A stretch of DNA of 64,000 nucleotides. It comes from Bacteroidota bacterium (GTDB lineage Bacteria; Bacteroidota; Bacteroidia; AKYH767-A; 2013-40CM-41-45). Position 1 is the stretch's first letter. Each line of letters opens with the position of its first letter. The stretch lies in the NCBI GenBank assembly GCA_043783155.1, contig JAYVZS010000141.1, forward strand, positions 5,428 through 69,427. The letters are read 5' to 3'. Of the stretch, positions 18,464 to 58,330 are shown one piece after another. A program made the position numbers and the translations under genes. The notes beneath the pieces are model-generated. The model had not been told where the DNA came from. It did no database searches and worked only from the letters and a program-made list of their open reading frames with translations.

Positions 18464-20074
<1,611 letters not shown>

Positions 20075-20243
20075 GTAACGAAGTGATGAGGTAGCTAAGT
20101 AACGAGCTATAACTTCATCACTTAGTCAGCTCGTTACCCAATAACCAAAGTACAAATAAGAAACGAGGTGAATAAGTAACGAAGTTACGAGGTTTAACAT
20201 CATCACTTAGTCACCTCATCACCCAATAACCAAAGTACAACCA
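20075..20243 (+). repeat. structured duplicated element filling the atpD-atpC spacer: two ~80 nt units, each ending ...CATCACTTAGTCA(G/C)CTC(G/A)T(T/C)ACCCAATAACCAAAGTACAA, with long-range complementarity between GTGATGAGGTAGCTAAG and CTTAGTCACCTCATCAC
   Basis: Direct repeat by inspection (20112-20155 versus 20197-20240) plus an inverted complement (20084-20100 versus 20203-20219). Confidence 0.6.
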
Positions 20244-20483
20244 ATGCATCTCGAAATTATCACCCCCGATAAAAAAATCTACAGCGGAGAAGTTACCTCC
20301 GTCAGCGTTCCCGGCATGAGCGGGCGTTTCCAGATGTTGAAGAATCACGCTCCTATTATCTCTACGTTGATGAATGGAAAAGTAAAAGTGAAAGACAGCG
20401 AAGGCGAAAAAGAGTTTGATGTAAAAGGCGGCGTGGTAGAAAATTTGGATAATAAGATTGTGATTCTCGCAGAGTCAGTATAG
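20244..20483 (+). CDS. atpC: F0F1 ATP synthase subunit epsilon
   Basis: It is 79 aa and begins MHLEIITPDKKIYSGEVTSVSVPGMSGRFQMLKNHAP, which is typical of epsilon. Confidence 0.9.
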   Translation: MHLEIITPDKKIYSGEVTSVSVPGMSGRFQMLKNHAPIISTLMNGKVKVKDSEGEKEFDVKGGVVENLDNKIVILAESV

Positions 20484-20511
20484 AGAGGCGAGATATTAGA
20501 TTCAAGAATCA

Positions 20512-20538
20512 AGACGTTCAGAGATGGACGTCTTTTTT
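20512..20538 (+). terminator. rho-independent terminator after atpC (AGACGT-tcagagatgg-ACGTCT followed by TTTTTT)
   Basis: A 6-7 bp stem with a T-run, 30 nt downstream of the atpC stop. Confidence 0.6.
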
Positions 20539-26848: not shown

Positions 26849-28018
26849 TTAGCTGATCTTCTGAAATGACTGCCACCAACGTTCCGGCATCTCATCTTTG
26901 CACGCTGTTTCGTAATCCTTGTAAGAACAAGGCACGAGGTGATGACGATGGTATTTTACCTTCGCATTCGGATACGGAACTTCCATCCACCAGCGGCTGC
27001 TTTTCTCACTCTTATAAAAAACAATTTCATGCTCCGATTTTTTCAACGACACACGGTATTTTACAAATCCCGACTTACTTGAAACCGGTAATTCCTTTTT
27101 ACGGTGATAATACCCGTCGATAAAATACCACATCATCTGGGCAATGAGGTGTGATGTCTGATCATGATTGTCGAACAACGGATTCGCTTCGTAAAACCCG
27201 ATCGATGTAAGCTTATCACTGAGGCCGGCATACCGAACAATCTGGCAGGCTTCTTCTCCGTAAAATCCATTGGGTGATGCATTGCCGTTTCCGGGTGCAT
27301 CCGACTGGCGAATAGCCGTCATGTCAAAACTCAAAATGTCTGCATTTCTTACAATGGGTTCCACTTCCTCCAGGTCTTTTCTCACCTGCCCCAGCCGGTA
27401 TGCATCAAAAAAAAGTTTATCCATTAATTCGATCTGGTCGTTGCCGACGAAATAAGTCTGGTAACCGATGTTGCTGAAGTTAAAAAGGAAGTTCGGCTCG
27501 TGCAGAATTATTTTTCCGAGATAGGTATTGGCGCGAATCTCTTCTTCGGTAGAACCTAAATCAAACTTCGCATCTACCGAAACAATGTTTACGGTTTCCT
27601 CTAATTGCTGATACGCTACATATTGAGCATAAGTGAGGTCCTGGCTTCCGCCGAGAATAACAGGAAGAATTCCTTCTTTCAGCAATTCAATCATGATGGA
27701 CGACAAAGCCGCATACGTATCTTTTAATGTTTCACCGAGGATAATATTTCCGAGATCAACAACCTGGTAAGGATGTTTGGATTTTTTCAGCTGATAAAAT
27801 TTTTCGCGGATGATGTCGGGAGCTTTCCCACAACCGTCATTGTAAACGGATCCGCGATCTTCTTCCACACCGATTAAAGCAAGCTGGCAATCGCTGCGGT
27901 CAGGAAATTTTTCAACGTCAAGAAATTTTTTCACAACGCTTCCCATCACCGTTTTACGGTCTTCATACACGTCAAATCTTGATCTGTCGAGTGGCTTAAA
28001 GAAAACGGATATATCCAA
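26849..28018 (-). CDS. arginase/agmatinase/formimidoylglutamase-family metallohydrolase
   Basis: It has the ureohydrolase fold pattern (…SFDMTAIRQSDAPG…, with D/H-rich metal ligands). The assignment is moderately secure. Confidence 0.55.
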   Translation of the reverse strand: MDISVFFKPLDRSRFDVYEDRKTVMGSVVKKFLDVEKFPDRSDCQLALIGVEEDRGSVYNDGCGKAPDIIREKFYQLKKSKHPYQVVDLGNIILGETLKDTYAALSSIMIELLKEGILPVILGGSQDLTYAQYVAYQQLEETVNIVSVDAKFDLGSTEEEIRANTYLGKIILHEPNFLFNFSNIGYQTYFVGNDQIELMDKLFFDAYRLGQVRKDLEEVEPIVRNADILSFDMTAIRQSDAPGNGNASPNGFYGEEACQIVRYAGLSDKLTSIGFYEANPLFDNHDQTSHLIAQMMWYFIDGYYHRKKELPVSSKSGFVKYRVSLKKSEHEIVFYKSEKSSRWWMEVPYPNAKVKYHRHHLVPCSYKDYETACKDEMPERWWQSFQKIS

Positions 28019-28030
28019 CGGAGAAGGGTT

Positions 28031-28134
28031 TTAGAGACGCAAGATTTTGCGTCATTGTTGAGGCGCAATATTTTGCGTCTTTGCTGAGACGCAAGATGTT
28101 GCGTCTTTGTTGAGACGCAAGATGTTGCGTCTTT
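28031..28134. repeat. four tandem ~26 bp palindromic units (consensus TTGAGACGCAAGATGTTGCGTCTTT; half-sites AGACGCAA/TTGCGTCT) between the topA stop and the start of the arginase-family gene
   Basis: The units start at 28031, 28056, 28083 and 28109. The last two are identical except for the first base. Each unit is a self-complementary 8-4-8 hairpin. Confidence 0.75.
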
Positions 28135-30631
28135 ACTTTTTCTTTGTCGCTGCTTTCTTGACCGGAGCTTTCTTTGCTGTTGGTTTTGCGGAGGCCGCTT
28201 TTTTTGTCGGGACGGCAATGTCTTCAACCGTTTCGACTTTTTTAGTTCCGAACGATTTTTTTGCACCGAAACCTTTGTTCGCGAATCCTCCTCCGCCTTT
28301 ATTTCCGAAACTCTTCTTGCCCCACTTCTTGGGTTCAGGAGCATTGGCAACGAGTTCATAAATTTCAGGCAGCGTGAGCGACTTCGGATCTTTATCTTTC
28401 GGAATTTTTACATTCTTATCTTTCACCGCGATGTATGGTCCCCAGCGGCCATTCAACACCTGCACTTCTTTGTCTTCATCAAATACCTTGATGATTTTTT
28501 CGGCCTGTGCTTTTCTCTTTTCTTCAATCAATTCAACCGTACGTTCAAGTGTTACAGTATACGGATCGTCTTCTTTCTTCAATGAAACAAATACATCTTT
28601 GTGTTTTGCATACGGCCCAAAACGACCGATGGCAACGGTGATGTCTGCCTCTTCATATTGACCAACCATTCTCGGCAATTTGAAAAGGTCAATCGCTTCT
28701 TCAAATGTAATCGTCTCAATACGCTGATTCGGCCGAAGCTTCGCGTAACGCGCTTTCTCCGCTTTACCTGCTTCAATTTCTTCCGTGGTTCCGATTTGCG
28801 CCATCGGTCCGAATTTTCCAACGCGTACTAATAAAGTAAGTCCGCTTGCAGGATCTTTACCCAGAATTTTTTCTCCCGAAACACGCTCCGACGTTTCTGT
28901 TGTCACCTCCACTGTTTTATGAAACGGATCATAAAATTCCTTGATCATCTTCTGCCATTTCAAGTCACCGTTGGCAATGTCATCGAATTCTTTCTCCACG
29001 TAAGCCGTAAAATTATAATCGAGAATTTCTTTAAAATTAAGAACGAGGAAATCAGTCACCAGCATGCCGATGTCTGTCGGGAACAATTTATTTTTTTCAG
29101 CGCCTGTATTTTCAGTTTTCTTCTCACTCTTTATTTTATTATCCTTCAGCGTGATCACATCATAATGACGTTCTCTTCCTTCACGTTCTTCTTTCACCAC
29201 ATATCCTCTTTTCTGAACAGTGGAAATAGTTGGAGCGTAAGTAGAAGGCCGGCCGATGCCAAGCTCTTCTAATTTTTTTACGAGCGATGCTTCCGTGTAA
29301 CGTGCAGACGGGTGTGTGAACCGCTCTGTGGCCGTGGCTTCCATCAGTTTCAGATTATCACCGATGTTCATGGCCGGCATGATTCCTTCTTTTGTTTCTT
29401 CATCGTCATCATCGGTATCGGAACTTTCCATGTACACTTTCAGGAACCCATCGAACTTGATAACTTCCCCGGTTGCAACCAGTTCATCTTTTGATTGAGA
29501 AGATGAAATAGTGACGACTGTTTTCTCCAATACTGCATCAGCCATCTGAGAAGCCAATGTTCTTTTGCGGATGAGATCATACAACCGCTGATCGCGCGAA
29601 TCACCGTCTACAGATTCAACAGCCATATCAGTAGGACGAATGGCTTCGTGAGCTTCCTGCGCCGACGCCTGTTTGGTTTTGTATTGATGAATTTCTACGT
29701 ATTTTTCTCCGTAGTTGGAAGTGATCACTTTCTTCGCCATGTCGAGCGCATCCTGCGAAAGACTTACCGAGTCCGTTCTCATGTAAGAAATTTTTCCGCT
29801 CTCATACAGCTTCTGCGCAATCACCATCGTTTGAGAAACTGAGTAGCCAAGTTTACGGCTGGCTTCCTGCTGTAAAGTAGAAGTAGTAAACGGTGCCGAC
29901 GGAGATTTTTTTCCGGGCTTCACTTCAAGATTTTTCACTTTGAAATCGGCCCCGATACAACTCTTCAGAAATTCTTCGGCTTCTTCTTTCGTCTTAACTT
30001 TTTTCGGAAGTTCCGCTTTGAATGTCTTTCCGTTCACTTCAAAAATTGCGACTACCTTATAAGAAGAAGTAATTTTGAATGAGTCGATCTCGCGTTCACG
30101 TTCAACCACCAGACGTACGGTAACAGATTGAACACGACCGGCAGAAAGCGACGGACGAACTTTTTTCCACAACACCGGCGAAAGTTCAAAACCGACTAAG
30201 CGATCGAGAACACGACGCGCTTGTTGAGCATCCACAAGATGTTTATCAATGGTGCGTGGATTTTCGATCGCAGCAAGAATCGCTTTTTTTGTGATCTCAT
30301 GAAATACAATTCGTTTTGTAGAATTCTCTTTCAGGCCAAGTGCTTCAAACAAATGCCATGAGATGGCTTCACCTTCGCGATCCTCATCCGTTGCCAGCCA
30401 AACCACTTCGGCTTTCTTCACAAGTTTTTGTAATTCTTTGATGACATCTTCCTTTTCAGGACTGATTTCATACACAGGTTCAAAATTATTCTTGATGTTG
30501 ATCCCCATTCCGCTCTTCACTAAATCGCGCACATGCCCATAGCTCGACTTCACGGTGTAATCGGATCCGAGGTATCCTTCAATCGTTTTTGCTTTGGCAG
30601 GTGACTCTACTATTACGAGATTTTTTGACAT
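28133..30631 (-). CDS. topA: DNA topoisomerase I with a lysine-rich C-terminal tail
   Basis: The TOPRIM N-terminus MSKNLVIVESPAKAKTIEGYLG is present and the active-site Tyr region is conserved. The protein is 832 aa and ends in a K/A-rich tail. Confidence 0.95.
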   Translation of the reverse strand: MSKNLVIVESPAKAKTIEGYLGSDYTVKSSYGHVRDLVKSGMGINIKNNFEPVYEISPEKEDVIKELQKLVKKAEVVWLATDEDREGEAISWHLFEALGLKENSTKRIVFHEITKKAILAAIENPRTIDKHLVDAQQARRVLDRLVGFELSPVLWKKVRPSLSAGRVQSVTVRLVVEREREIDSFKITSSYKVVAIFEVNGKTFKAELPKKVKTKEEAEEFLKSCIGADFKVKNLEVKPGKKSPSAPFTTSTLQQEASRKLGYSVSQTMVIAQKLYESGKISYMRTDSVSLSQDALDMAKKVITSNYGEKYVEIHQYKTKQASAQEAHEAIRPTDMAVESVDGDSRDQRLYDLIRKRTLASQMADAVLEKTVVTISSSQSKDELVATGEVIKFDGFLKVYMESSDTDDDDEETKEGIMPAMNIGDNLKLMEATATERFTHPSARYTEASLVKKLEELGIGRPSTYAPTISTVQKRGYVVKEEREGRERHYDVITLKDNKIKSEKKTENTGAEKNKLFPTDIGMLVTDFLVLNFKEILDYNFTAYVEKEFDDIANGDLKWQKMIKEFYDPFHKTVEVTTETSERVSGEKILGKDPASGLTLLVRVGKFGPMAQIGTTEEIEAGKAEKARYAKLRPNQRIETITFEEAIDLFKLPRMVGQYEEADITVAIGRFGPYAKHKDVFVSLKKEDDPYTVTLERTVELIEEKRKAQAEKIIKVFDEDKEVQVLNGRWGPYIAVKDKNVKIPKDKDPKSLTLPEIYELVANAPEPKKWGKKSFGNKGGGGFANKGFGAKKSFGTKKVETVEDIAVPTKKAASAKPTAKKAPVKKAATKKK

Positions 30632-30654: not shown

Positions 30655-30705
30655 GAATCAAGAATCAAGACAACGCGGCAATCTTGATTCTTGCGTCTTG
30701 AATCC
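30655..30705. repeat. CAAGAATCAAGAC / CTTGATTCTTGCGTCTTG inverted and direct repeats in the topA leader region
   Basis: GAATCAAGAATCAAGAC (30655-30671) versus ATCTTGATTCTTGCGTCTTGAATCC (30681-30705). It shares the TTGCGTCTT word with the 28031-28134 array and the TCTTGATTCTTG word with 33276-33332. Confidence 0.55.
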
Positions 30706-33275: not shown

Positions 33276-33332
33276 GTCTTGATTCTTGACTCTCATATCT
33301 TGCGTCTTGATCCTTATATCTTGATTCTTGCT
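33276..33332. repeat. three tandem ~19 bp repeats (CGTCTTGATTCTTGACTCTCAT / ATCTTGCGTCTTGATCCTTAT / ATCTTGATTCTTGCTTCTAAT) immediately upstream of the sigma-54 activator gene
   Basis: Direct inspection. It shares the motif ATCTTG(A/C)(T/G)TCTTG with 30655-30705, 28031-28134 (on the reverse complement) and 58272-58330. Confidence 0.6.
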
Positions 33333-58271: not shown

Positions 58272-58330
58272 TCTTGGTTCTAATATCTTGGTTCTTGTAT
58301 CTGGTATCCTGTATCTGGTTTCCTGATTCT
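58272..58330. repeat. tandem 14 bp repeats (ATCTTGGTTCTTGT / ATCTGGTATCCTGT / ATCTGGTTTCCTGA) between the tolC stop and the emrA start
   Basis: Direct inspection. The unit is related to the ATCTTGATTCTTG family. Confidence 0.55.

Follow-up and report, generated by a model that had tools for sequence, protein, structure and literature searches.

The spacer behind topA in a bacterium of the Bacteroidota holds four short hairpins in tandem. At a probability of roughly 0.8, this array is the relic of a GTAG-class REP, that is, of a hairpin element mobilised by a RAYT transposase of the Y1/HUH type, which has suffered decay of its tags and has been amplified head-to-tail behind topA. The array is an ordinary genomic parasite relic and not a dedicated regulator. 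A conspicuous spacer structure is thereby explained as the remains of a mobile element, and the idea of a topoisomerase-specific regulator or operator is removed. All positions given below refer to the window, by which we mean the whole 64,000-nt (64-kb) stretch of DNA that was analysed.

The Array and Its Flanking Genes

The array lies between topA, which encodes DNA topoisomerase I, and a gene for a protein of the arginase/formimidoylglutamase family, both of them on the minus strand (Table 1). Downstream of the arginase-family gene are porP, porK/gldK and gldL in the window, and gldM and gldN as called in a matching contig (L001), a gene order by which the organism is assigned to the Bacteroidota. 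The homologs of the arginase-family protein are almost all 389 aa long, and the TTG start is kept in congeners. Together, the homolog length and the conserved TTG support this start of the gene, so that the spacer from the topA stop to the TTG measures 114 nt. The TTG (window 28016–28018) is conserved in four congeneric species (L128 10001; L129 2297; L130 6238; L132 10001; L186 2576), and the sister species discussed below has an ATG at the start of this gene. Gene callers that pick an internal ATG instead give a protein of 365 aa and, wrongly, a spacer of 186 nt.

Tandem Repeats Finder (TRF) reports an array of period 26 with 3.9 copies, a score of 160 and 89% matches. Within it are four palindromes of 20 nt. 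When the 64 kb were scanned for AGACGCAA-N4-TTGCGTCT with up to three mismatches, four matches were obtained, all of them within the array, where 0.28 would be expected; none of 100 shuffles gave four matches. TRF and the pattern scan thus bear out the original prediction, made from the letters of the window, that four tandem palindromic units of about 26 bp follow topA. Two of its finer points hold in part. Each unit was described as a perfect 8-4-8 hairpin, which is true of those at 28087 and 28113 and fails for the one at 28035, with an A/A mismatch, and for the one at 28061, with A·C on the mRNA sense. Likewise, the units were said to fill the whole 114-bp spacer; hairpins and linkers do cover 98 nt of it, with 16 nt left over. 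The four units are thus short palindromic stem-loops of the 20–40 bp class, two perfect and two with one mismatch. The loops, CATC, AATA and AATC, are all in one orientation, and the 6-nt linkers are CAACAA and CAGCAA.

Table 1. Features of the array, its flanking genes and the separate TCTTGATTCTTG repeat, with positions in the window. Units are numbered in mRNA order.
Feature	Position	Strand	Description
topA	28133–30631	−	DNA topoisomerase I, 832 aa, upstream cistron; TIGR01051, 673 bits
5′ tag	28133–28136	−	Decayed tag GTAA (family consensus GTAG); the TAA inside is the topA stop
Unit 1, type A	28113–28132	−	AGACGCAA-CATC-TTGCGTCT, perfect 8-4-8; 0 nt past the topA stop
Unit 2, type A	28087–28106	−	Same sequence as unit 1; linker to unit 1 is CAACAA
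Unit 3, type B	28061–28080	−	AGACGCAA-AATA-TTGCGCCT; A·C mismatch in sense, G·U in antisense
Unit 4, type C	28035–28054	−	TGACGCAA-AATC-TTGCGTCT; terminal pair gone, A/A mismatch
3′ tag	28031–28034	−	Decayed tag CTAA (family consensus CTAC), TTAG on the + strand
Entire array	28034–28134	.	26-bp period, polymorphic copy number; TRF
Spacer remainder	28019–28034	−	16 nt, last hairpin to TTG start
Arginase/formimidoylglutamase-family gene	26849–28018	−	389 aa, TTG start, downstream cistron
TCTTGATTCTTG copy	20503–20514	−	
TCTTGATTCTTG copy	30659–30670	−	
TCTTGATTCTTG copy	30682–30693	+	
TCTTGATTCTTG copy	33277–33288		
TCTTGATTCTTG copy	33319–33330		
TCTTGATTCTTG copy	58286–58297		

A scan of the 16-nt spacer remainder with a consensus of the sigma-70 type, which does not cover Bacteroidota promoters, found no promoter-like site. 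Nor was a promoter motif of the Bacteroidota type seen there by eye. No promoter was seen in the spacer and the two genes point the same way, so transcription of the array together with topA is probable.

A Separate Repeat in the Window

The original prediction also listed degenerate relatives of the half-site at 30655–30705, 33276–33332, 58272–58330 and 20497–20515. These belong to a different repeat, TCTTGATTCTTG, which is built on TCTTGAT heptads and has six matches in the window at up to one mismatch, against 0.87 expected. The first two TCTTGATTCTTG locations were seen to be intergenic. Beyond the array there are three extra TTGCGTCT octamers, no more than chance would give (2.4 expected).

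The TCTTGATTCTTG copies at 30659 and 30682 form an inverted pair. In the topA leader, some 28 nt before the ATG, this pair makes a hairpin of 13 bp (ΔG −20.5 kcal/mol, z −3.6). Structured repeats thus stand on either side of topA, the leader hairpin at its 5′ end and the array at its 3′ end. Another repeat, with a unit of 85 bp in two copies (83% matches) and with internal inverted repeats, lies at 20069–20240 and occupies the spacer between atpD, which ends at 20074, and atpC, which starts at 20244.

A Widespread Family of Tagged Hairpins

The likeness to REPs that had been noticed in the window holds up well, as the core of the array equals exactly that of a GTAG-tagged, extragenic, RAYT-associated hairpin family. 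A scan with the 16-nt core, with one genome per species, places this family at at least 120 loci (L007–L126). A further 45 viral-contig stretches from IMG/VR (L140–L184) also carry the hairpin, the shared sequence being 16–28 nt long. The array thus matches an established repeat family. Two of the window units agree with the family core at 16/16 positions and two at 15/16. The tags agree at 3/4 and 3/4; that is, the terminal GTAG itself is absent in the window, where GTAA (28136–28133, minus strand) and TTAG (28031–28034, plus strand) are found.

By record title, about two thirds of the loci listed are from Bacteroidota (Hymenobacter, Spirosoma, Mucilaginibacter, Bacteroidales, Prevotellaceae, Chitinophagaceae and others). 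The remaining taxa among them include Planctomycetota, Chloroflexota, Desulfobacterota, Patescibacteria, Cyanobacteria and Acidobacteria. Both isolates (Hymenobacter, Spirosoma, Nostoc) and closed MAG chromosomes are represented. REP families are often species- or genus-specific, and the breadth of this hairpin across phyla is therefore unusual. In one viral stretch (L141), the hairpin adjoins a phage capsid gene, just 3′ of a protease gene.

Of the 152 matches listed, 85 have GTAG on the 5′ side and 85 have CTAC on the 3′ side; 48 have both tags, and 122 have at least one. Because these tags flank most of the matches, the matches are not chance finds. The family consensus, GTAG-AGACGCAA-N4-TTGCGTCT-CTAC, makes a 12-bp stem of −18 kcal/mol as RNA. 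Among the matches listed, 120 of 153 copies (78%) are extragenic, in DNA of which ORF proxies span 81%. By the direction of the genes on either side, 69 contexts are unidirectional, 19 convergent and 9 divergent. The window copy is likewise extragenic, with topA ending on one side of it and the next gene, which runs in the same direction, beginning on the other. Family members are often found as inverted pairs 50–120 bp apart, with the tags outermost, and other genomes have 2–5 hairpin copies per 8–20 kb. Stems are maintained: 9 of 17 core variants with two mismatches show compensatory Watson-Crick changes. No recurring neighbour protein family or cargo was found near the hairpin, as at most 6 of the 120 loci listed share one.

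The largest REP super-family is recognised by a terminal GTAG (PMC3733652). The GTAG tag, the extragenic placement and the maintenance of the stem together indicate that the family behaves as a REP. The hairpin sequence is not among the families in the available parts of PMC3733652 or PMC12306157, and a literature search for the exact sequence returned unrelated primers and constructs.

Within the 64-kb window and some 20 kb of flanking DNA from related contigs, neither a second hairpin copy (at up to three mismatches) nor a RAYT homolog was found, and no GTAG-tagged hairpin with a stem of 10 or more, whatever its sequence, occurs in the window. An E. coli-like high density of REPs is thus excluded locally, in the window and the related flanks. 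This isolation, along with the imperfect tags and an array form that is unique, is what one would expect if the palindrome had arisen and duplicated independently at this site, its likeness to the widespread hairpin being coincidental. Such a local origin is nevertheless very unlikely, given a core match of 16/16 and flank matches of 3/4 and 3/4 to a family whose members are most frequent in this very phylum, the presence of the same module, with GTAA/CTAA flanks, in the sister species, and an expectation of only about 0.28 matches in 64 kb even at three mismatches.

Several copies elsewhere depart from the usual form. In an Anaerolineales MAG (L025 2896–3107), five GTAG-tagged copies stand in tandem with a period of 45/57, head-to-tail and with longer linkers. 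At L021 2004–2776 and L107 7645–7700, core copies with GTAA…CAAC flanks are in frame within long ORFs. The L021 ORF exceeds 1025 aa, and the copies in it separate repeated domains that by eye resemble acyl-carrier-protein repeats; the L107 ORF has at least 1329 aa, and its copies are translated into repeats like VKTQ(N/D)IASQ. These copies may be intragenic REP insertions. L021, L107 and L076, all with GTAA…CAAC flanks, had been considered as similar intergenic arrays and were rejected, as all are inside long open reading frames. A preference of the family for abutting stop codons was also set aside, because the spike at distance 0 is gone under frame control (17, 20 and 12 open frames).

The RAYT-Like Genes of the Family

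At one locus (L015), an ORF with HUH and Y-x3-NP motifs has hairpin doublets on both sides. It matches the NCBIfam model NF047646, ‘REP-associated tyrosine transposase’, with E = 1.2e-15 and 57.6 bits, a score under the curated cutoff of 80, and it has a weak match to Pfam Y1_Tnp. Relatives of this ORF adjoin a hairpin at two further loci (L066, L103), and the repeat-flanked RAYT arrangement is found for the family in L015, L066, L103 and L134–L137. At E ≤ 1e-10 the RAYT-like protein family comprises about 8,000 proteins, and JGI names many of them RayT. The converse search, which started from RAYT homologs at three independent loci (in Draconibacterium orientale, an Edaphocola sp. and a JGI metagenome), found the hairpin, exact or compensated, within the gene or no more than 60 nt away in all three. 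Judged by these sequence features, the hairpin family is a REP family with a cognate RAYT-like clade. No such REP/RAYT system, spanning Bacteroidota and other phyla, was found in the REP literature searched.

A tagged hairpin also lies in frame inside RAYT-like genes (L134 10346–10373; L135 10371–10398; L136/L137 10299–10326; L103 436–463). Its translation, a peptide like RDAMHCVS or VETQC(I/V)ASL, falls in a variable loop that has the HUH motif on one side and FGPQSKNLASIIRGFK on the other. The in-frame hairpin is present in 77 of 120 RAYT-like homologs; P0122 and the L015 gene are without it, and P0123 has two copies. If the conservation of the hairpin across phyla is owed to its being carried in frame, transposase and target would form one self-contained unit, mobile between lineages and also via phage. 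Confirmation of a REP/RAYT system with a hairpin conserved across phyla and usually embedded in its transposase gene would bear on the persistence and spread of REPs and of their domesticated transposases. Two linked readings are rather unlikely: that conservation across phyla is due to the in-frame RAYT hairpin, and that copy number at topA acts as a dial which differs between strains and sets TopA output or the coupling to the secretion genes.

Copy Number among Strains

Identical TopA protein is encoded on eight contigs. The window and one further contig (L004) have four units, and two contigs (L001, L002) have ten, the ten-unit counts being from short-read assemblies and the exact number uncertain. 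Aligned with the window across some 22 kb, L001 and L002 show 99.94–99.96% identity outside the array and no further gap. This makes the array a hypervariable variable-number tandem repeat (VNTR), with four versus ten copies among close strains as counted in short-read assemblies. That the array has been extended, as the original prediction had it, is borne out by these alleles of near-identical strains. In mRNA order, the units of the window are A-A-B-C and those of L001 are A-A-A-A-A-B-C-A-B-C. Across the alleles the linkers are CAACAA, CAGCAA and CAGTAA; the last, found in L001 and L002, holds the tag remnant GTAA.

A search of JGI metagenomes for further 26-bp arrays of this unit found none; it gave two junction matches, both of them coincidental and in the coding sequence of rplT. 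Three independent short-read contigs (L003 4979; L005 2871; L006 2720) terminate within the first unit of the array, which indicates that metagenome assemblies are broken up here by the repeat. Hypervariable and disruptive to short-read assembly, the 26-bp repeat could also serve as a strain marker.

These contig ends raise the question of whether the repeat, or the difference in copy number, was produced by short-read assemblers; the ten-unit alleles, at 260 bp, are longer than typical short reads. The likelihood of an artefact is close to nil. The 104-bp four-unit allele is identical in independent assemblies (the window and L004), ten units are found in two separate assemblies that differ only in linker variants, and a homologous module is present in the sister species.

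The Site in Related Species

In the sister species (about 83% nt identity, two samples), the same site reads TAA-AGACGTGATGCATCGATAAC-GTAA-AGACGCGA-TGTA-TCGCGTCT-CTAA. That is, it has one decayed and one intact unit, and the intact unit carries a compensatory A>G/T>C pair. ATAA stands at the position of the 5′ tag, and GTAA precedes the intact unit. The hairpin is missing in five other congeneric assemblies (L128/L129, L130, L132, L186) with the same gene order, the spacers of which are unrelated, of four distinct kinds and 39–124 nt long. Absence in close relatives and variation in length indicate that any function of the array is dispensable. The simplest history would be one insertion behind topA in the ancestor of the two species, decay of the tags and then amplification in one of them.

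The distribution also bears on the alternative given in the original prediction, an operator array for a dimeric regulator. Spelled out, the units would be bound by a dimeric factor governing either the arginase-family gene and the type IX secretion genes or topA itself. Tandem 8-4-8 palindromes just upstream of a gene start have the look of an operator, and the inner ACGCAA-N4-TTGCGT resembles boxes of the LacI/PurR type, although the array loops are without the central CG typical of LacI-family sites. Within the 64-kb window the motif occurs only at the array, which, by the test proposed with the prediction, would by itself favour a local operator; the wider genome data overturn this. Operator sites would be conserved at orthologous regions, and the hairpin is wholly absent in the five congeneric assemblies with identical gene order (L128, L129, L130, L132 and L186), which contradicts this alternative. 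The copy number changes from 4 to 10 among 99.95%-identical strains. In many phyla the palindrome turns up in settings that have nothing in common, bearing REP tags and associated with RAYT, and no regulator gene recurs near it. An operator array is thus exceedingly improbable.

A topA-Specific Element?

The position of the array suggests a dedicated topA control element, as follows. The units would have been selected either as a supercoiling-responsive structure, through cruciform formation or gyrase binding, or as an RNA rheostat, with copy number as a contingency switch. The array begins 0 nt past the topA stop, its copy number is polymorphic, the site is kept in two species with a compensatory change that preserves the stem, and the topA leader has its own, separate 13-bp hairpin. 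In E. coli, BIME-2 repeats are cleaved by gyrase, according to work listed in the references of PMC12306157, which adds to the attraction of this reading.

The family-wide data point the other way. In 165 other hairpin loci listed (1.25 Mb), neither TopA nor an arginase-family protein is encoded, so that the topoisomerase or gyrase link hinted at in the original prediction does not extend to the family: the count for TopA is 0/165. Moreover, five other congeneric assemblies are without the hairpin, compensatory maintenance is family-wide and not specific to this site, and the family shows no frame enrichment in its abutment of stop codons. A dedicated control element is therefore distinctly unlikely, and a REP relic that came to rest behind topA is preferred.

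RNA Folding and Termination

As RNA, the sense strand of the spacer folds at −50.5 kcal/mol (z = −7.8). Single units fold at about −10 kcal/mol (−9.5 to −10.5), except that the sense strand of type B is weaker. For unit 1 the values are −9.6 kcal/mol in sense and −10.5 kcal/mol in antisense; for the type B unit they are −4.6 versus −10.0 kcal/mol. Type B pairs fully on the antisense only, which is a small point against a purely sense-RNA role. With Rfam 15, at gathering and at permissive thresholds, only a tRNA was found in the window, the matches to the array having E ≥ 0.03, far below the gathering scores.

Hairpins followed by T-rich tails could be transcription terminators that end topA or antisense transcripts. 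On the plus strand such tails (TTTGTT, TTTGCT and TTTACTTTTTC) do stand behind the hairpins, and a scan listed three terminator-like sites. The plus strand, however, has no upstream gene to terminate, and on the minus strand, which is that of the genes, the tails are CAACAA and CAGCAA, with no U-tract. The array thus lacks the U-tract behind a GC-rich hairpin that, on the transcribed strand, defines an intrinsic terminator. In this region 6 terminator-like sites were found, against 5.4 expected from shuffles. Termination is a highly improbable explanation of the array.

Proposed History and Effects

The history that we propose for the REP relic is as follows. One copy of GTAG-AGACGCAA-N4-TTGCGTCT-CTAC would have landed behind the topA stop in the ancestor of this species and its closest sampled relative. 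The tags then decayed, GTAG to GTAA and CTAC to CTAA, which probably immobilised the element. Next, head-to-tail copies of a 26-bp module consisting of the tag remnant, the hairpin and 2 nt would have accumulated. The most likely cause is replication slippage, or else unequal recombination, between the self-complementary units, the outcome being strains with 4 to 10 copies. REPs reiterated in tandem are on record (PMC3733652), and head-tail arrangements are reported to be rare (Di Nocera et al. 2013, PMC3733652).

If transcribed, the array would fold into successive stem-loops, each of about −10 kcal/mol and the first of them 0 nt past the topA stop. For REPs in general, roles in mRNA stabilisation, transcription termination and supercoiling have been hypothesised (PMC3733652). 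By analogy to E. coli REPs, the likeliest side effect would be that the topA message is shielded from 3′ exonucleases, or that terminating ribosomes are hindered and less TopA is made, or both. E. coli REPs within 15 nt of a stop are associated with ribosome stalling and lower translation (PMC12306157, citing its ref. 17). By the same analogy the first hairpin, being no more than 15 nt from the stop, could stall terminating ribosomes and lower the yield of TopA. The array may also loosen the coupling of expression to the genes downstream, those of the arginase family and of type IX secretion, and the strength of the effect would depend on copy number.

Comparison with Known Systems

The closest likeness is to the GTAG-tagged REP/RAYT systems (Nunvar 2010, PMC2817692; Ton-Hoang 2012, PMC3333891; Di Nocera 2013, PMC3733652). 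As in these, the units are short palindromic stem-loops. The family to which they belong shares the GTAG tag and the location outside genes, mostly downstream of or between co-directional or convergent genes. It also shares inverted dimers 20–100 bp apart, tandem clusters, complementary changes in the stem and repeat-flanked RAYT-like genes. The window copies differ in having decayed GTAA/CTAA tags, in being the only copies in 64 kb and in having no RAYT nearby. A difference at the level of the family is that GTAG often pairs with CTAC, making a 12-bp stem, rather than forming an unpaired end.

With the E. coli REPs that lie close to stop codons (ref. 17 of PMC12306157), the array shares its position, as a stable hairpin 0 nt past the topA stop is well inside the range of less than 16 nt in which translation is reported to be lowered. 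Unlike E. coli, the host here is a member of the Bacteroidota, and the stop abutment of the family is without frame preference.

Enterobacterial BIMEs are REP clusters that bind gyrase, IHF and Pol I. The array resembles them in placing several REP-type palindromes in one intergenic spacer of a co-directional gene cluster. BIMEs are made up of regularly spaced REPs in alternating orientations, as described by Nunvar 2010 (PMC2817692). The array consists instead of direct head-to-tail copies with 6-nt linkers and its loops all face one way, so that the original description of it as BIME-like does not apply.

Bacterial VNTR or minisatellite loci are generated by slipped-strand mispairing. The array shares with them a short period, here of 26 bp, a copy number of 4 versus 10 at 99.95% identity and the duplication of an A-B-C block. 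It differs from them in its unit, which is neither an arbitrary nor a coding repeat but a self-complementary relic of a mobile element.
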